Origin: Nanobdellati archaeon
Lineage (GTDB): Archaea; Nanobdellota; Nanobdellia; Woesearchaeales; GCA-2686295
Assembly (NCBI GenBank): GCA_014384375.1
Contig: JACNFY010000017.1
Location: 1 to 63,060, forward strand
Direction of reading: 5' to 3'
Length of the DNA stretch: 63,060 nucleotides
In this document: positions 15,885 to 24,207 of the stretch, in pieces
Layout of the letters: every line of letters begins with the position of its first letter
How positions within the stretch are numbered: the stretch's first letter is position 1
Position numbers and translations under genes: made by a program
The notes under the pieces: model-generated
The model's input: the letters and a program-made list of their open reading frames with translations, nothing else
Told to the model about the DNA's origin: nothing
Database searches by the model: none

Positions 15885-16342
15885 TGCAACACCTAAAAAT
15901 CCTTAACTCAAAGGAAACTAAGAGGATTCTTAAGTTGCTAAAACAACAGTTCGGCTTTGAAGGAAAACTTGGCTTTGTTTTTCTAGTGAATAATAAAGAT
16001 AGAGTTTATGTTGTTAATCGTGATATTGAAAGGGTTGAGTTGGAGAAGTTAAGGATTAATGCTCTTGGTCTCTACTTCGGCACTTTTATTAAAGGTGAGT
16101 TGAGGCTTAGCATAGAGGGAAGCCAAATAATTGGGCCGAGAGCAAAAAAGAACATCCTTGACATTAATGATAAGGAGTTTGAGATTTGGTTGAAAGGAGA
16201 AGATTTCAAGATGAATACTGACTTAGAAGGTTTTGTTCTTGTAAAATACAGAGATGACTTTGTAGGTTGTGGCAAGGTCAGTAATGGAACACTTCTAAAC
16301 TATGTTCCAAAAGCGAGAAGATTAATTGTTGTGAATAATTAG
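15872..16342 (+). CDS. NIP7/RsmF-C-terminal-like PUA-domain protein (ribosome biogenesis)
   Basis: GLYFG, RLSIEG, W-x2-G-x-D, GCGK, LLNYVPK-x-RR pattern; true start may be 15881/15884. Confidence 0.75.
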   Translation: MGCMMQHLKILNSKETKRILKLLKQQFGFEGKLGFVFLVNNKDRVYVVNRDIERVELEKLRINALGLYFGTFIKGELRLSIEGSQIIGPRAKKNILDINDKEFEIWLKGEDFKMNTDLEGFVLVKYRDDFVGCGKVSNGTLLNYVPKARRLIVVNN

Positions 16343-17538
16343 TTTTCTGGAGTGGTTTCTGGTATATTATCCACGTATTCCAGTCTCTCGAAAAGTGGTG
16401 CCAACTGTTTCTGTAGCTCATAGTGAATAGGTCTCCACTTATCTCTTCTTAGATTCTCTTGTCGCTCAACATACCTGGCGTGATTGAGATTCTTATCTTT
16501 CTTATCTTGGATTTCTCCTACAGTATCCTGCACTTGTATTTCAAATGTTTGGTAAACAGTATTACCTTGGAAATCTCTTATTTGGGTAGGAAGATCAATA
16601 TGTATGGCTGAGTGCTTGGATATGGAATCGAATTTTTCTCTTGGAAGATTGTAATGACGAACTTTTCCTTTCAGATTTGTTCCATACTCTGCTGCCAGTT
16701 CTGATAACTTTTTCAAGACCCTTAAAGCATTATCCTCATCTGATGTGACAATTCTTATGGCGGATGTATCGCAAATTAACAATTCTTCAGATTCTATTCC
16801 AGCTATCCTATCAGTAAACTTGCTTAGAAGTCTACCTCCTGACTTCATCCTCCCACCTATCTTTGTAGCACATTCAGATTCTGACGGGTTTTTTACAAAA
16901 TACCAGTTTCCTGCAGCTATGAAGAATGTATCTTCTGGATCTTTGCATCTTCTTGTTTCACATTGAGTATCAACTTCTCCCTTTTTGTAACTTGCAAAGA
17001 AATCTTTGTCCATGATTGCAGACTCAGTCTCTGTGTCATACAATGTTACCTCATCACAAGTGTTGCATCTTACTTCATGCATATGAATAATATAGTAATC
17101 CAAGGATCTGTTCCTTCTATCAACAAAAAGTTTTGGAATAAGTTTATGTTCTATGAAATCAATCATATCGAACTCTAACTTTCCAAGCACGCTGACCATC
17201 TCATTAGCTAATGTTCTTATTTCTTCTTCTGGAATGACTTTGCCAAGTATTTCTTGGATATACATGGATTCGATTTCTTTAGCTTCTCTCCTTATTGCCT
17301 CATTTCCTGATTTTCTCAAATCTGTTATTCTTGCTTGTTGTTTTCGTATATAGTTAAAATCTGTTTTTGTAAGATACCCTTTGAATATTTTTCTCGCATG
17401 TGTCCCTTTTGCTCCTCTATCAAATTTCTCTAGGTCTATGGTTATATCTTCTAATAGTTCGATGCGGGTTATAAGGCTCTCAAGAGTCTCCTGCATCTGT
17501 TGATTTGCAAAAAAAGCTTTGGTTTTTCTTTTCATCAT
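16339..17538 (-). CDS. Divergent RelA/SpoT-family synthetase-like nucleotidyl/pyrophosphotransferase with Zn-ribbon-like segment
   Basis: GRMKS-x5-SK, D-x2-AIRIV, HSAIH, FEIQVQD match RSH SYN motifs in order; CNTC...CETRRC upstream. Confidence 0.7.
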   Translation of the reverse strand: MMKRKTKAFFANQQMQETLESLITRIELLEDITIDLEKFDRGAKGTHARKIFKGYLTKTDFNYIRKQQARITDLRKSGNEAIRREAKEIESMYIQEILGKVIPEEEIRTLANEMVSVLGKLEFDMIDFIEHKLIPKLFVDRRNRSLDYYIIHMHEVRCNTCDEVTLYDTETESAIMDKDFFASYKKGEVDTQCETRRCKDPEDTFFIAAGNWYFVKNPSESECATKIGGRMKSGGRLLSKFTDRIAGIESEELLICDTSAIRIVTSDEDNALRVLKKLSELAAEYGTNLKGKVRHYNLPREKFDSISKHSAIHIDLPTQIRDFQGNTVYQTFEIQVQDTVGEIQDKKDKNLNHARYVERQENLRRDKWRPIHYELQKQLAPLFERLEYVDNIPETTPEN

Positions 17539-17539
17539 T

Positions 17540-19213
17540 TTATCCTACTGCTCCCCACCCAAAAACCCGGTATCTTTTATTTCTACTTTCTAGATTTATT
17601 TCTTTCTTTTTAATGATTTTGGGAACTTCCAGGTTTCTATCTCTGTACATATCATTAAGATATGTAAGCATTAATCTTTTGAATATTTGAAGATGGATGT
17701 ATTGTTTCCTGTAATCTCCTCTCAATGGTTCCATGAGAGTCCTTTCATCAGATACGAATTTATCATAATTTGCCTCTAGTATGTCAAATGGATACCTTCT
17801 TTCGTCCATTTTAAATCTTGTTCTTCTTGCAAGCCATCCAGCTCTTGTATAGTTATGTAGTCTTCTGTCAAGGTGTATTTTGTCCAATACATCAAATCTT
17901 TGATTCAAGTCTTTTATACTATAAAGGTTATTTATCCCTTTTATAGTTCCTATAACATTAGTGTCAAGCTTCTTTTTTCTTAATTCTTTTTCCAGCCAGA
18001 TTTGGTCTATTTGCATAATAGGTTTAATGACTAGTCTATCTTTTGAATATAATTTTTCATCGTCAAAACTAAGATATTCTCTTTTGAATCCTGCACAGTG
18101 ATATTTTAATAGATGTTGTTCCATGGATTGAATCCTGCCTAAAGTTGCTATTATAATGTCTTCTTTTAGTCTGCTTTGGAAGTATTCATAGCCTTCTTTG
18201 TTCAAGTATTTGTTTATGGTGTCTACAACACGGAAACTCTTGTATATTGCTAGGAGTTTTTCAGGACCTGTTATTGCTCTGTCACGCTCTGCCCTGTGAC
18301 TTAGACTTTGAAATTGTCTTCCTATTGTTTCTAATGTTTCATCTCTCCATTTTCTGAATTTTTTACTAAGAGTGTGTTTCACCACACTTATTTTTTTTGT
18401 TCTTCTCTTTTCTTCTCCTCCAAGCAAATAAACCACCATGTCTCTGAGGAAGAGCATCAGACGACTAGGAACATCCTTGTATAAGTCATCCAGTTCGTTG
18501 ATGTTTGCTATGATGTCACCTCCTTTGATTTTCAAGACTTTTGGTATGTATTTTGCCAAGTGTTTTTTTCCGTTTAAATCAATCATGTCATCGGTGAATT
18601 CATAGTAATCACGTGGCTCTCCTGTATCAACGTCATACTTTGTTAGTTTATCAGCAATGAATTCGAGACCTTCGGCATCTTCAAGGAAACGATCTTTATC
18701 TTCTATATCAGAGTTTATTATGAACTCTTCGAACTCCTTCTTTATATCAGCTGGCATTACAGGGTTATCTTCATCATGTGTTTCTTCGACTACGTCATGA
18801 AGCAATGCTCCTATAACGTCGAGATAGCTTAACTCGTCACCCATGACAACATCCTCAAGATGTATCTTTCTTACAAGTGGAAGAGATAATTGACGAAGAC
18901 TAGACATACTGTCTGTTGTTCTAAACTCTTTTTCATAAAGCTCAACCACTATTTTTGCTACATCTGTTGGGTGTCCTGAGTAAAGCCTCCCTGTTTTTCT
19001 CTTGTTTTCCCCGTGCTTTAAAAGCATGTATTGTAAGAAGTGAGTTATTACTTTCACTTCATCGTCGTCAAAATACTCTGATTTGTTGTAGTATTCATTA
19101 ACAAATTTTTCTAGTTTTAGCGTGTTTTCTTGTTGGGCGTAGAAGTATAATGAACTGACTTTTTTAGGTTCAAAGATTGGTTTGACTCTTTGGTCTATAG
19201 TGTCGACTAGCAT
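17540..19213 (-). CDS. RelA/SpoT-type HD hydrolase-domain protein with long unknown C-terminal extension
   Basis: H-x4-RKTG-x2-Y-x2-HP-x2-VA, ALLHDVVEET, LTK, IKGGD-x3-N correspond to RSH/Mesh1 HD motifs. Confidence 0.8.
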   Translation of the reverse strand: MLVDTIDQRVKPIFEPKKVSSLYFYAQQENTLKLEKFVNEYYNKSEYFDDDEVKVITHFLQYMLLKHGENKRKTGRLYSGHPTDVAKIVVELYEKEFRTTDSMSSLRQLSLPLVRKIHLEDVVMGDELSYLDVIGALLHDVVEETHDEDNPVMPADIKKEFEEFIINSDIEDKDRFLEDAEGLEFIADKLTKYDVDTGEPRDYYEFTDDMIDLNGKKHLAKYIPKVLKIKGGDIIANINELDDLYKDVPSRLMLFLRDMVVYLLGGEEKRRTKKISVVKHTLSKKFRKWRDETLETIGRQFQSLSHRAERDRAITGPEKLLAIYKSFRVVDTINKYLNKEGYEYFQSRLKEDIIIATLGRIQSMEQHLLKYHCAGFKREYLSFDDEKLYSKDRLVIKPIMQIDQIWLEKELRKKKLDTNVIGTIKGINNLYSIKDLNQRFDVLDKIHLDRRLHNYTRAGWLARRTRFKMDERRYPFDILEANYDKFVSDERTLMEPLRGDYRKQYIHLQIFKRLMLTYLNDMYRDRNLEVPKIIKKKEINLESRNKRYRVFGWGAVG

Positions 19214-19685: not shown

Positions 19686-21614
19686 ATGATTTTAGGTCAA
19701 ATAGTAGGCAAGGTAACGCCAACAAACTTTTCATTTAAACTTGAGAAAGAAACGAAAAAGTTTGAGTACATCCAAGTCTACCATGGGGTATATGACTATG
19801 TTCTATGCCAAATTGTTGAGCTTGAAAGAACCAAAGATGGTACTATAGCCAAATGCAAAACCATAGGATACCAAGACAAAGATGGGAAGGTAAAGCAGAT
19901 AAGGATACCATTTGAACCAGGCGCAGAAGTGCTAGAATCAGATGATGAATTCATAAAAAGAATTATTAGTTTAGAAGACGAGGGAAAGGGAGCATACATT
20001 GGAAAACTGGAAGGAAAGGATATCAATGTATACCTTGATTTGAAGAAATTACTAACAAAGCACTGTGCAGTCCTTGCAAAATCAGGAGCTGGAAAAAGCT
20101 ACACAGTAGGAGTGCTGATTGAAGAGATACTTGACAAGAAAATACCTCTACTTATAATAGATCCTCATGGTGAGTATTCAAAGATGAGATTTGAAAATAC
20201 AGATGACAAAGAAAAGCTAGAGAAGTTTGGGTTGAAACCGCAAGGTTATGAAGTTAAGGAGTACGGAGATCCGGAGGTTAATGAAGGAGTTATACCCTTA
20301 AAGCTCACAAAAGATATCACAAATTCTGAATTGATACACTTACTGCCTGCAAAGCTTTCAAGTACACAAGTTGGTGTGCTGTACAGTGCCCTTAAAAATA
20401 TAGATGAGTTGAACTTCAACCAGTTGTTGCTAGAATTGGAGAAAGATGAAAGTGCAGCCAAGTGGACCATAATAAACGTTATAGAATATCTGAGTAACCT
20501 AAACATATTCTCAGATTCTCCAACGCCCTACTCTGAGCTTATATCACCAGGAAACTGCTCGATAATAAATGTTAAAGGAATGCCACCCGACATACAGGAG
20601 ATAATCGTTTACAAACTATGCAAGGATCTTTTTGAACTGCGAAAGAAGAACGAGCTACCACCTTTTTTTCTAGTGCTTGAGGAGGCACACAATTTCTGTC
20701 CTGAGAGAAGCTTTGGAGAAGCAAAGAGCTCGAAGATACTAAGAACAATCGCTAGTGAAGGAAGGAAGTTCGGTCTTGGATTCTGTGTGATAAGTCAGAG
20801 ACCAGCTCGAGTTGACAAATCTGTCTTAAGCCAATGCACAACCCAGATGATAATGAAAGTAACTAATCCTAATGATTTGAAAGCAATATCAAATAGTGTT
20901 GAGGGAATCACAGCAGAGTCAGAGTCTGAAATACAGAACCTGCCTGTTGGAACTGCTCTTGTCTCAGGAGTTGTTGACATCCCGTTGTTTGTCAATATAA
21001 GGCCTAGAAAAAGCATGCATGGAGGAGAGGCAGTCAACATCTTAGATGAAGAAGAAAGAGATGTTATAGAGGATTTAAAGAGTTTCGAGAAAAGAGATTT
21101 GATTCCTGTGATAAAACCAAGGACAACAGTGAAGGACATAAAACTAATGTCAGACAAGGAAGTCAAAGTCAAAGTCAAATTGATACCTGCTGCACTAGTC
21201 ACATGCACTGATAAAGAAGGAGACTTCAATGTATTGATAGAATTAGTTGATGGCTCAATAGTTGTTGACAAAGAGAAGTTCGTTATAAAGAAACTGCCTG
21301 ATATGAATCATCTCACAAGCCAGGAGATTTCTGTTTTGAAAAAAGCATTTGGGAAACAAGCATTGTCTGATGATGAAGCAAAAAGCTTGATTGATAAAGG
21401 ATACTTAAAAGATGATGGTTCTTTATCAAATGATTATATATTCTCAAAGCTCAGAAACCATGCTAGTTATGACAACATAGAGTTTCTCAGTATGACATAC
21501 GATGAAAAACTAGAACCTGTTCTAACCGAGGAAACAGTGAGGAAAAAACTCTCAAACATTGCAGAAATCAAAGCTTACAAAGAGTGTTTTATCGTGAAGC
21601 ACGAAATAGCTTGA
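19686..21614 (+). CDS. HerA/FtsK-like ATPase (HAS barrel + helicase core)
   Basis: Walker A AKSGAGKS, IDPHGEY, Walker B LEEAH, EGRKFG, SQRP. Confidence 0.9.
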   Translation: MILGQIVGKVTPTNFSFKLEKETKKFEYIQVYHGVYDYVLCQIVELERTKDGTIAKCKTIGYQDKDGKVKQIRIPFEPGAEVLESDDEFIKRIISLEDEGKGAYIGKLEGKDINVYLDLKKLLTKHCAVLAKSGAGKSYTVGVLIEEILDKKIPLLIIDPHGEYSKMRFENTDDKEKLEKFGLKPQGYEVKEYGDPEVNEGVIPLKLTKDITNSELIHLLPAKLSSTQVGVLYSALKNIDELNFNQLLLELEKDESAAKWTIINVIEYLSNLNIFSDSPTPYSELISPGNCSIINVKGMPPDIQEIIVYKLCKDLFELRKKNELPPFFLVLEEAHNFCPERSFGEAKSSKILRTIASEGRKFGLGFCVISQRPARVDKSVLSQCTTQMIMKVTNPNDLKAISNSVEGITAESESEIQNLPVGTALVSGVVDIPLFVNIRPRKSMHGGEAVNILDEEERDVIEDLKSFEKRDLIPVIKPRTTVKDIKLMSDKEVKVKVKLIPAALVTCTDKEGDFNVLIELVDGSIVVDKEKFVIKKLPDMNHLTSQEISVLKKAFGKQALSDDEAKSLIDKGYLKDDGSLSNDYIFSKLRNHASYDNIEFLSMTYDEKLEPVLTEETVRKKLSNIAEIKAYKECFIVKHEIA

Positions 21615-21694
21615 TATATTCTTCATTATAATTAATATAGAATATATTCTTTAGCATATAAATATTTAAAAATAAAAATAATATCTACCTTCTT

Positions 21695-21966
21695 GGGGGT
21701 GGAAATCGCAAAAGATTTTCAGCTTGAATCAGAACTCTCCTGATAAGGGTTTTGAGAAATTCGACGTTGCTTGCAACATCGAGCGTAAACGTCTTCGGAT
21801 GTTTGCAATGCCAATAAGAACTGACCAAGAGAAAAGAGATAAACTTGGAGAAGCTTAGTGGGAGACAAGCTCATAACCTGGAAAGGATGAACCAGATTCT
21901 CTTTTAAGGTTCACCAGGAGCGAAGATTCGCTAAAAAGTTGAGAAACGGATGCGATGGAAACCTCT
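21695..21966 (+). ncRNA. Candidate ~270-nt structured non-coding RNA of unknown class
   Basis: 5' and 3' ends pair in three nested helices; several internal hairpins including a C(UUCG)G loop; GC-richer than flanks; TATA-like element upstream and T-run downstream; no ORF in track. Confidence 0.65.
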
Positions 21967-21977
21967 AACTTTTTTCT

Positions 21978-21999
21978 AAGATTGTTGATTCAGACTAAT
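21978..21999. repeat. 22-bp direct repeat, left copy (AAGATTGTTGATTCAGACTAAT)
   Basis: Identical to 22911-22932. Confidence 0.9.
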
Positions 22000-22006
22000 A
22001 GGCATC

Positions 22007-22879
22007 CTAACCATAGATAGAAATAATTATGGTCCCTACAACCATTAACGAAGCAGCGATAATTCTCTTCTTTAAATCCTTTTCCTTGAACCAATAATAA
22101 CCATAAATCATAGAGAACAAAATACTAAGCCTCTTCAAAGAAATAACATATGGAGCTATGATGAACTTATTAGCAAAATTCCCGAGCATAACAGTTGAAA
22201 ATAAAGCCAATCCAATCAACAAGAGTTTATTGAAAGCGACATTTGGTTTCAAAATGGCCTCTCTGTCAAACAATAAGCCAATAACCAACATGCTCAAACT
22301 CAGACTAAATATTCCCATAGTAGAATGAAAAACAGGAGAAGTCATAACCACAAGCATACGATCAAAAGAAGCGCCAATAGCATAAAGAAAAGCGACAATT
22401 AACATATAATAAGAACCCTTGTTCTTAATCATGGCCTTGAAAGGAACTAATAAATTCCGAGTTTTACTAGCATGTAAAACATAAGATCCAAGCACTACAA
22501 ATAAAACTCCAACTAAGCCAAATAGAGAAGTAAACTCGCCAACAATCAAAGGAGACATGAACAATAAGAAAAGGGGAGTGAAAGCAAGCATTGGCATAGC
22601 AAGAGTTAGATCAGCGAGTTTGAAGGCCTTCAAATAAAGCAAAGTAGCAAAGATATTGACAATAAGCCAAGGAATGATAAATAAGAAATACTTGGCAGGA
22701 ACAATAGGAATACCAATCAAAAATAAAGAAACAAATAAAAAAGGAAGAGTGAACAAATAAGGATAAACAGCCATAGAGAAGATACTGGCGTTCTTGATAG
22801 TCTTTTTAATTAATGCATAATAAGAAGCACTTGCAAAACCAGTCAATATCGCTAGTATGTAACCAATCATAAACTTCAC
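22007..22879 (-). CDS. EamA/DMT family transporter
   Basis: 290 aa, about 10 TMs in two repeats, LIVGE and WFKEK motifs. Confidence 0.9.
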   Translation of the reverse strand: MKFMIGYILAILTGFASASYYALIKKTIKNASIFSMAVYPYLFTLPFLFVSLFLIGIPIVPAKYFLFIIPWLIVNIFATLLYLKAFKLADLTLAMPMLAFTPLFLLFMSPLIVGEFTSLFGLVGVLFVVLGSYVLHASKTRNLLVPFKAMIKNKGSYYMLIVAFLYAIGASFDRMLVVMTSPVFHSTMGIFSLSLSMLVIGLLFDREAILKPNVAFNKLLLIGLALFSTVMLGNFANKFIIAPYVISLKRLSILFSMIYGYYWFKEKDLKKRIIAASLMVVGTIIISIYG

Positions 22880-22968: not shown

Positions 22969-24207
22969 ATGCAACAAAGAATAAGAACAGGAGAAATTCT
23001 CGAAAGGGATTATGGAATTACATTGCATCTTTCAGGTGTCAAAAAGATATTCATAAGTCCTGTGAAGTATGCAATCGCAGAATTGATGCTTGAGACACCC
23101 AGCAGAATAAGAGAGAGAATAAAGGAAAAAGCAAGACGCGAAGGAGTTTCTATAAAAGAGTTAAGCGACAAACTTGTCCAAGGAGTTCTGAAAAGAGAGA
23201 AATCAAAGGATTTTCTGAATAGAAACACTCGTGGTTCTTTAAGAAAGGTCGAACTTCACAGTGGAGTGACCTATTCTGCACAGGTAAGATCTAAGGAAAA
23301 AAGCGGACCAGATTTTTTCAATGTTTTGATCAGGAACCCTTTTATTTCAGATGACAGATTTTTTGAATATGAATTTATGAGATGTAGCTGTGATGATAAT
23401 TTCTGGAATGACATAAGGAACTTTTATGCTATGTGCATACATCTGTCTGAATTAGAGGTTGCGTTATACAGGGATGAACTTGAGGGCTTATCTGCTAAGA
23501 AAAATCTAACAAGACTTTTCCCAAGGGAGAGAAAACCGAATCCCTGGGATACTTCGTCAATGCCATTTACCTTCTTTGACAAGGGAACTGGCAGAGCTGA
23601 AAGAGACCGATTGCTAACAGATGTTCTCTTTGAAAGATATGTTGATGGCAAAAGCTATTCCAAAATAAACAGGGAATTATTTCAGAATAGAGATATATAT
23701 TCAGAAGCATTAATCTATGCAATAGAAGAAGGAGCAGGAAGATTTGAAGTCCTAAGAGGAAAAGAGAGAACAAGAGAAAAAAGACTTTTAGCACCTAATG
23801 ATAAGAGGAGATATGGAGCAATCAAAGCTTTGGAAAAGAGAATAATAAGAATGTTTGATTATTTCAACATGTGGAAGAAGAGTTATGTTCTGGAATTCCA
23901 AGGTACTCCTTGGGAAGTCACTGCTCAAAGATTTGAGAAAAAAGACAGCGTATATTCTTTATGCATAGGAAAAAATATGCTTCCACTAATAGTGAAAAAA
24001 ACGCTTAGGAACGGAATAGTTAGTGATTGGACAATCTCAGAAGATAGAAATCTGAATTCTCCTTTCAAAAGAAAAAGTACTTATGAATCAATTGATGACA
24101 CAATAAGAAGAATAGGGTTGACACAGATAATAATCCCTGGCATAGGCGCTGGTGCAAAGATAGATGTTCCTGGAATGCTAAGACAGGAGTATAGAAGATT
24201 AATATAA
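22969..24207 (+). CDS. Hypothetical basic protein with SWIM-type Zn finger
   Basis: RCSCDD...MCIHL fits C-x-C-xn-C-x-H. Confidence 0.6.
   Translation: MQQRIRTGEILERDYGITLHLSGVKKIFISPVKYAIAELMLETPSRIRERIKEKARREGVSIKELSDKLVQGVLKREKSKDFLNRNTRGSLRKVELHSGVTYSAQVRSKEKSGPDFFNVLIRNPFISDDRFFEYEFMRCSCDDNFWNDIRNFYAMCIHLSELEVALYRDELEGLSAKKNLTRLFPRERKPNPWDTSSMPFTFFDKGTGRAERDRLLTDVLFERYVDGKSYSKINRELFQNRDIYSEALIYAIEEGAGRFEVLRGKERTREKRLLAPNDKRRYGAIKALEKRIIRMFDYFNMWKKSYVLEFQGTPWEVTAQRFEKKDSVYSLCIGKNMLPLIVKKTLRNGIVSDWTISEDRNLNSPFKRKSTYESIDDTIRRIGLTQIIIPGIGAGAKIDVPGMLRQEYRRLI

Follow-up and report, generated by a model that had tools for sequence, protein, structure and literature searches.

The archaeal contig JACNFY010000017.1 (Nanobdellati archaeon, assembly GCA_014384375.1) carries a gene for a structured noncoding RNA (ncRNA) of 272 nucleotides (nt) at positions 21695-21966 of the forward (+) strand. 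The window analysed here is the stretch of 63,060 nt at positions 1-63,060 of this contig. The genome that holds the window, called G000 (other G-numbers are the related genomes compared), is assembled into 39 contigs with a total of 1.27 Mb, 35.5% GC and 95.5% completeness, and it contains a single copy of the gene. We show that the RNA is real, expressed and independently transcribed, and that it has a conserved, covarying higher-order fold. That such an RNA exists and that it belongs to no curated family is, taken jointly, close to certain. Our overall reading, to which we assign a probability of roughly 0.55, is that it represents an undescribed family of stand-alone, stable and highly structured ncRNAs, limited to a small Woesearchaeota-type clade of DPANN archaea and acting in trans as a scaffold.

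Transcription and distribution of the RNA

The block conserved among the relatives runs, with exact boundaries, from GGGGG (21695) to AACCTCT (21966), and putative transcription signals lie on both sides of it:

21665-21672 (+): TATA-like box, TTTAAAA / TTTAAAAA, roughly 30 to 23 nt before the start of the RNA, preceded by a purine-rich stretch resembling a transcription factor B recognition element (BRE)
21970-21975 (+): T-run, TTTTTT, 4 nt past the end of the RNA, probably an archaeal terminator

The initial annotation, made from the letters of the window, had taken the TTTAAAA (21665-21671) and the T-run as signs of an independent transcript. Both are present, and their equivalents occur at all nine loci at which the RNA was found: a BRE/TATA-like motif (RAAAC-TTTTTAAAT, TTTATAA or TTTAAAA) is positioned ~24-33 nt ahead of the initial G, and T-runs come after the RNA, within ~12 nt of its 3' end in most cases. 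The conserved promoter and T-runs thus support an independent transcript.

The RNA is also represented in public RNA libraries that hold about one-third of the words of a 701-nt stretch centred on it. Logan contigs from four runs of two seawater metatranscriptome studies were placed on the locus, and each run gave one contig (263, 259, 259 and 209 nt) with an identity of 99-100%. These contigs lie at 21705-21963 (two runs), 21694-21950 and 21742-21950, cover 21694-21963 jointly, and show no joints, loose ends, or clustered starts or ends. The metatranscriptome check that the initial annotation had proposed was therefore positive, with contigs from two studies falling on exactly this stretch, and the molecules assembled from these libraries share the position of the predicted gene. 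Between the two studies, the contigs end within ~13 nt of each other, which is only a weak hint of the true ends, and the flanks at 21500-21691 and 21980-22200 have no contig cover, which is not evidence that they are silent. We also noticed a C>T variant at 21915, in the junction after hairpin H6, in the contigs of one study (X14, X16). The same letter is found in G007, and the variant suggests a strain difference more than editing.

When 61 related genomes were searched by BLAST, the RNA was matched over its full length in four congeners of G000, at 89, 82, 80 and 78% identity, and in a member of another genus of the home family, at 67%. The 134-nt short form of G004 (40 bits) came to light with a covariance model. 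A 412-nt long form, which shares the termini and helices and scored just 10 bits by the covariance model, was located in G010 downstream of the orthologue of a HerA-like gene that precedes the RNA in G000. The RNA is carried by 8 of the 11 genomes of the home family. Outside this family, a scan of 151 genomes of the order (one or two per family, 136 families) with the full model found G015 alone (235 nt, 58.5 bits), and a second covariance model, built on the 3' domain (115 positions), gave the same result over this sample. The RNA-positive genomes are G000, G002, G003, G004, G006, G007, G009, G010 and G015.

Wider searches returned few candidates. Over 151 genomes of the class, the 3'-domain model gave a single match (G530, 29.7 bits), which was rejected because it lies in a stretch that reads as protein-coding. 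A partial match in G023 (24 bits) was also rejected, since it is inside an AAA_28 open reading frame (ORF) and was gone with model R3, and the candidates at G009:C42 (19 bits) and in G040 are too weak and short. Paired terminal motifs were confined to the home family, with 6 carriers among the 401 genomes of the order that were scanned and no match for the reversed control. When the 5' 26-mer was scanned against species genomes across the whole collection, only the five known relatives were returned. A metagenome scan with a kissing-loop/CAARCU pattern gave at least 118 stretches; two of the 80 loci examined are true by the model, and both are identical to genomes already compared and add no diversity. 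The single match of the 5' motif in viral contigs is a chance match (8 bits, GC 0.62). Because genomes were sampled and the sensitivity of the model is limited, as the G010 form exemplifies, the RNA is to be described as not found elsewhere rather than as absent; as far as searched, it is confined to two families of one DPANN order.

The covarying fold and its kissing loops

The orientation of the promoter and terminator, the stronger fold and the many G-U pairs together indicate the + strand. The minimum free energy (MFE) of this strand is -86.3 kcal/mol, against -64.4 ± 5.0 kcal/mol for dinucleotide shuffles (z -4.41; 0 of 200 shuffles as good), compared with -67.5 kcal/mol for the - strand (z -2.75; 1 of 200 shuffles as good). 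The strand had been assigned from the G-U pairs in the initial annotation, and the z-scores agree with it: these pairs, for example those in helices P1 and P3, fit only the + strand.

Homologues exist and covary, as the initial annotation had asked to be examined. In the alignment of six sequences, 89.9% of the cells are paired and 17 of 87 pairs are changed on both sides, compared with 6.5 ± 1.9 after shuffling (0 of 500 shuffles as high; slid controls 3-6). With nine sequences, aligned by MAFFT and not fitted to the structure, 85.2% are paired and 29 of 79 pairs are changed on both sides, compared with 12.7 ± 2.7 (0 of 500; slid controls 9-13). The distant G015 RNA, whose sequence is largely different, forms 62 of the 63 proposed pairs, and the G010 RNA forms 54 of 56.

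The comparison shows a predicted fold in which a terminal rod (P1, a GGAR internal loop, P2, P3, P3a and P3b) is capped by a three-way junction. One arm of the junction is P4-P5-P6, which leads to hairpins H2, H3 and H4, and the other arm is hairpin H6. The elements are as follows:

21695-21700 with 21961-21966 (+): P1, GGGGGU/ACCUCU; 98% of cells paired in nine sequences, with G-U/G-C exchanges
21701-21704 opposite 21957-21960 (+): 4x4 internal loop, GGAA opposite GGAA, seen in the alignments
21705-21710 with 21951-21956 (+): P2, AUCGCA/UGCGAU; 92.6% paired, two pairs changed on both sides (G004, G010, G015)
21716-21725 with 21936-21945 (+): P3, UUUUCAGCUU/AAGUUGAGAA; supported by conservation or covariation
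21726-21730 with 21925-21929 (+): P3a, GAAUC/GAUUC; three of five pairs changed on both sides, GAUUC/GAAUC in G015
21735-21737 with 21918-21920 (+): P3b, CUC/GAG; CUCUU/AAGAG in G015, CCUU/AAGG in G010
21738-21741 with 21884-21887 (+): P4, UCCU/AGGA; C-G to G-C change in G006
21747-21756 with 21870-21879 (+): P5 and P6, GGGUU.UGAG/CUCA.AACCU; covariation in six and in nine sequences
21760-21783 (+): hairpin H2, UUCGA.GUUG-CUUG-CAAC.UCGAG; absent in G015
21785-21806 (+): hairpin H3, GUAAACGUC-UUCG-GAUGUUUGC; absent in G015
21811-21861 (+): long hairpin H4, CCA/UGG, UAAG/CUUA and CCAAG/CUUGG, with a purine-rich loop
21888-21913 (+): hairpin H6, UGAACC/GGUUCA, with a pyrimidine-rich loop; 95.8% paired
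21832-21839 with 21898-21905 (+): kissing interaction, H4 loop AAAAGAGA with H6 loop UCUCUUUU; covarying complementarity

The long-range helices are retained with different letters in the divergent RNAs. P4 is represented by ACUU/AAGU in G015 and CUUA/UAAG in G010; P5/P6 is represented by GGUUC.GAGU with ACUC.GAACU in G015 (9 of 9 pairs) and by UUUUUGAG/CUCAAAAA in G010 (8 of 8). In nine sequences, 7 of the 12 pairs of H4 and 4 of the 6 pairs of H6 are changed on both sides. P3 contains a bulge insertion in G009, G010 and G015, and P3b is weaker within the genus (75-83% paired). The junction nucleotides CAAGCU and AAUGCC are conserved.

All sequence elements listed in the initial annotation are present where it had placed them, and its closing helices (P1, P2 and P3) are borne out by conservation or covariation, as are its hairpins CGACGUUGC/GCAACAUCG (H2), GUAAACGUC-UUCG-GAUGUUUGC (H3) and GAACC/GGUUC (H6). 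The symmetric GGAA/GGAA loop that it described is present and its 5' side, GGAR, is identical in all nine homologues, but its 3' side varies (GGAA, UGAA, UUCA or CAAC). Three of its small hairpins, AGCUU/AAGCU, CCU-GGAA-AGG and AGCGAA/UUCGCU, are broken without compensation in G006, G009, G010 and G015 and are kept only in the closest relatives; the last of them is in fact 5 bp with a 4-nt loop (AGCGA/UCGCU). Covarying long-range helices replace these three, so that the flat multibranch core of many hairpins gives way to a hierarchical one with long-range P3a, P3b and P4-P6 and a loop-loop kissing contact.

The loops of H4 and H6 form 6-10 contiguous pairs in the seven homologues in which they were read from the alignment, and the two partners change together: they are GGUGAGAGAA/UUCUCUCGUC in G009 (10 pairs), UAGGAGAA/UUCUCCUA in G010 (8 of 8) and AAAGAGA/UCUCUUU in G015 (7 pairs, 7 of 8). 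Since one loop is homopurine and the other homopyrimidine, shuffles often reach 5 pairs, and the weight therefore lies on the coordinated changes. The contact may form within one molecule or between molecules, and sequence alone does not distinguish the two.

The nine homologues range from 134 to 412 nt, with 269-286 nt in the two genera of the home family, and three of them differ in module content:

L138:1501-1634: G004 short form, 134 nt; rod, H1 (an alternative hairpin described below), H2 and H3, without the whole H4-H6 half; richer in GC (0.53)
G015 form, 235 nt: rod, P3a-P6, H4 and H6, without H2-H3
L143:1702-2113: G010 long form, 412 nt; ~110 nt of extra hairpins on the 3' side

The sole module common to all size variants is the terminal rod with its invariant 5' GGGGGYGGARRU. 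The rod shows compensatory changes in the G004, G015 and G010 forms, and few nucleotides beyond the 5' end are invariant across families. In the G010 form, we also observed that a GCUUU segment is duplicated, so that the 5' strand of P3 has a possible partner in each copy.

Competing pairings and possible roles

One further hairpin is incompatible with part of this fold:

21729-21738 with 21746-21755 (+): H1, alternative hairpin, UCAGAACUCU/AGGGUUUUGA; formed in the G000 MFE structure, excludes P3a, P4, P5 and P6

The initial annotation had drawn H1 among the core hairpins. It has support of its own (91.7% paired, two pairs changed on both sides), but it is one of two competing pairings that are both supported: its 3' strand AGGGUUUUGA is the segment that forms P5/P6, and its 5' strand overlaps P3a and P4. 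An H1-type local hairpin is predicted in all nine homologues at -3.7 to -9.7 kcal/mol. Its equivalent in G015 has 8 of 8 pairs built from different letters, and H1 is the sole option of the short G004 form. In constrained folding, the H1 and long-range states are 0.5-8.7 kcal/mol apart. The unconstrained MFE structure contains H1 in G000 and G002 and the long-range fold in G007, G003 and G006, taking different states in near-identical sequences, and the scores of models R1 and R2 (58.5 vs 54.1 bits on G015, 40.5 vs 29.8 bits on G004) are not decisive. The double pairing may reflect a real switch or a fold that forms transiently during transcription, or it may simply follow from the likeness of the two partner strands.

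In G000, the RNA is flanked by a HerA-like ATPase gene at 19686-21614 (+) and a convergent EamA transporter gene at 22007-22879 (-). Over the nine loci, the neighbours include HerA, EamA, adenosine deaminase, HAD hydrolase and asparagine-synthase-like (AsnB) genes, and none of them is constant. An adenosine deaminase gene is divergently upstream and an AsnB gene is downstream at two loci each. The gene 3' of the RNA is convergent at four loci (G000, G002, G006, G010) and differs among the remaining ones. The lack of a constant neighbour, together with the four convergent downstream genes, makes a cis-regulatory role or an origin as an mRNA fragment unlikely; no constant same-strand downstream gene of the kind expected for a cis-acting riboswitch or leader was found over the nine loci, and a T-run follows the RNA.

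The most likely of several roles, proposed here tentatively, is that of a trans-acting scaffold. The RNA would act in trans as a structural or protein-binding RNA, either as a ribonucleoprotein (RNP) scaffold or in regulation. The invariant 5' strand GGGGGYGGARRU of the terminal rod would serve as the recognition handle, and the distal domain, locked by the kissing loops, would provide a rigid yet evolutionarily replaceable body. Several observations weigh against this reading. No protein gene is constantly adjacent to the RNA, and the HerA-like gene is upstream at just five of the nine loci. In a check by eye against the kink-turn consensus of the C/D and H/ACA sRNAs bound by L7Ae (a three-nucleotide bulge, then tandem sheared G-A pairs), neither register of the purine-rich internal loops (GGAA/GGAA and GAUAA/GGAA) appears to fit, which gives no indication of L7Ae binding. 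The two mutually exclusive folds are comparably supported, and a static scaffold leaves this unexplained. Three genomes of the same genus, G001 and G008 (95% complete) and G005 (84%), have no match to the RNA, and the stretch downstream of HerA in G008 is short and reads without such an RNA; the RNA is therefore dispensable or replaced in these three congeners, which argues for an accessory role. With regard to the data, the Logan contigs carry no information on strand or precise ends, and DNA can be present in RNA libraries; the covariation rests on nine sequences from two families, mostly from one genus, with few and related events.

The competing pairings raise the question of whether the RNA is a conformational switch or sensor, in which GGGUUUUGAG would pair either locally with UCAGAACUCU (H1) or long-range with CUCAUAACCU (P5/P6), with temperature, a ligand or protein, or the progress of transcription as the trigger, with H1 also competing with P3a and P4. 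Compensatory changes in both pairings within the family, the ability of the divergent G015 RNA to form both (H1 8/8, P5/P6 9/9), the prediction of an H1-type hairpin in all homologues, and the energy gap of 0.5-8.7 kcal/mol with an MFE choice that differs among members all fit such a switch, and a closing helix, a multi-helix junction and kissing loops are an architecture shared with several riboswitch aptamers. However, a strand that pairs with each of two others makes these two alike, so the double support is partly non-independent, and H1 may be a mere folding intermediate during transcription. Several members give the local hairpin only modest z-scores (-0.55 to -3.4), and the short G004 form is restricted to the H1 state. 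As no downstream gene is consistent, such a switch would act in trans; this inconsistency and the convergent neighbour at four loci also weigh against it. We consider it unlikely.

A catalytic RNA, self-cleaving or otherwise, with an active site formed by the pseudoknotted core is improbable. Its size, multi-helix junction, covarying loop-loop contact and conserved CAAGCU/AAUGCC are typical of large catalytic RNAs; against this, no Rfam ribozyme or intron family matches it even weakly, the RNA-library contigs span nearly the entire molecule without joints or clustered starts or ends, the core is partly dispensable (H4-H6 in G004, H2-H3 in G015), and few nucleotides outside the 5' end are invariant across families. 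Slightly less probable still is self-assembly into head-to-tail dimers or higher oligomers through pairing of the H4 and H6 loops between molecules. These loops, 6-10 nt long and covarying, are complementary to each other but not to themselves, which suits contacts between molecules as well as within one, and RNA-only assemblies have recently been reported for large bacterial RNAs such as ROOL and GOLLD (bioRxiv 10.1101/2024.12.08.627333). No oligomers are in evidence, and H4 (~12 bp plus loops) has about the length of the P4-P6 stack along which it would lie, so that an intramolecular contact would be geometrically plausible. A cis element or processed 3' fragment of the HerA-like mRNA is the least probable explanation of all. 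It would account for the HerA-like gene directly upstream on the same strand at five loci (G000, G003, G006, G010 and G015), the second family included. Yet the RNA is separated from HerA by the conserved BRE/TATA box, which has the proper spacing at all nine loci, four loci have no HerA upstream, and G001, G005 and G008 keep HerA (70-76% identity) without an adjacent match to the RNA model; no RNA-library contig bridges HerA and the RNA.

Known RNAs, neighbouring genes and significance

The RNA matches no known family. A search of the 63-kb window with Rfam 15 (4227 models, including riboswitches, introns, ribozymes, OLE, raiA, ROOL, GOLLD and HEARO/omega RNA) gave no match at gathering score, and on the RNA region itself just five matches with E 1.3-9.5 and at most 16.8 bits (E 8.8; cut-off 50); the Rfam search of five homologous loci gave no match on the RNA. 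The initial annotation had suggested this search as a check of novelty, and it had seen no signatures of RNase P, signal recognition particle (SRP) or transfer-messenger RNA (tmRNA). Its view is upheld: the models of archaeal RNase P RNA (RF00373), archaeal SRP RNA (RF01857, with helices 5, 6 and 8) and 5S rRNA (RF00001, with a three-way junction core; expanded forms considered) have no match in the window, and ARAGORN gives no tRNA or tmRNA gene in it. The G000 genes for the first three are on other contigs, RNase P RNA at C20:15006-15332 (151.3 bits) and SRP RNA at C18:24989-25258 (121.3 bits), both above the Rfam cut-off, and 5S rRNA at C10:19402-19517 (76.2 bits), and our RNA has no sequence similarity to any of them. 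Shine-Dalgarno mimicry by the 5' end of the RNA was considered and dropped: a search of the 39 G000 contigs with a short conserved motif from the 3' end of 16S rRNA gave no rRNA-like site, and the 16S gene may be missing from the assembly. Literature searches found no description of the RNA.

Other classes were also considered and rejected. A retron msr-msd or a template RNA of a diversity-generating retroelement has no associated reverse transcriptase here; PF00078 was not found in G000, and no such gene is near any of the nine loci. A Y RNA has neither an Rfam match nor a Ro60 (TROVE, PF05731) gene in the 95.5% complete G000 assembly, in a search whose control matches Deinococcus. A transposon guide RNA (omega RNA or bridge RNA) does not fit a single-copy element whose neighbours are not TnpB, IscB or IS110. 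The region does not encode a small protein, since its ORFs of 44-51 amino acids (aa) are crossed by indels of 1, 2 and 8 nt among the relatives and the substitutions in its helices are compensatory.

The neighbouring genes were recorded as well. The wider surroundings are of a housekeeping type (aIF5B, a NIP7/PUA protein, a phosphoribosyltransferase, isocitrate dehydrogenase and aconitase), and around the HerA/RNA locus there are three sizeable ORFs without a Pfam match (399, 557 and 412 aa; 16339-19213 (-) and 22969-24207 (+)). The HerA-like ATPase (DUF87 and HerA_C, 19686-21614 (+)) is solitary, with orthologues in the genus that are 70-78% identical; the NurA, Mre11 and Rad50 families have no match among the scanned ORFs near it. 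In G007 and G003, a protein of ~480 aa (484 aa) without a Pfam domain, 49% identical between the two, is encoded directly downstream of the RNA on the same strand:

L004:1820-3271 (+): gene for the ~480-aa protein downstream of the RNA
L006:5-1450 (-): gene for the ~480-aa protein downstream of the RNA

A link between this protein and the RNA was rejected: the protein is unrelated to the neighbour in G004, and no match to this query was found in G000.

Several known RNAs resemble this one in part. Archaeal RNase P and SRP RNAs have a similar length (~270-330 nt), a G-rich closing helix, a multi-helix build, a polymerase promoter and an oligo-T terminator, whereas our RNA is not universal and has no sequence similarity to them. 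The Y RNA/Ro60 RNP shares a terminal stem formed by the RNA ends with an internal loop and a variable distal domain, and is likewise abundant and non-essential; our RNA is larger, has a kissing-loop core, and no TROVE/Ro60 gene was found in G000. The raiA motif RNA is of similar size, at ~200 nt. As they are described, raiA, OLE, ROOL and GOLLD are, like our RNA, stand-alone and abundant, with an intricate fold, covarying helices and long-range tertiary pairing, an orphan biochemical function and a restricted phylogenetic range (PMC10861870, PMC9723947, 10.1101/2024.12.08.627333). Our RNA differs from them in being archaeal, in its much narrower range (two families of one order) and in modules that vary between forms of 134-412 nt, and it has no sequence or model similarity to them, all four being in Rfam. 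Cultivated nanohaloarchaea, which are also DPANN with tiny genomes, are reported to express unclassified, organism-specific ncRNAs far above the level of mRNA; of the five predicted there, four belong to no known family and lack BLAST matches beyond their close relatives (La Cono et al. 2023, PMC10266531). These belong to another phylum and are described as hairpin-hinge-hairpin (H/ACA-like) from RNAfold pictures without comparative support; their authors report no matches outside their own genera (PMC10266531).

The reduced genomes of DPANN archaea (~1.3 Mb) leave little space for non-functional DNA. These archaea rely on host cells and have lost most regulatory proteins; to our knowledge, very few structured RNA classes other than the universal ones have been described in archaea, and none is specific to DPANN. 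It seems doubtful that, instead of a passive scaffold, the RNA is a new kind of functional machine (a bistable switch whose two conserved folds, H1 and P3a/P4-P6, would gate an activity, a ribozyme or a self-assembling RNA); if true, it would be the first such machine RNA specific to DPANN archaea. The narrow range of two families restricts the generality of the finding. The nine-sequence seed, the structure and the pseudoknot are available for a new RNA family model. As an expressed molecule of ~270 nt with a covarying tertiary contact, a modular build and possibly two folds, the RNA is a concrete and experimentally tractable object, and it can be used to ask what role accessory RNAs have in host-dependent archaea.

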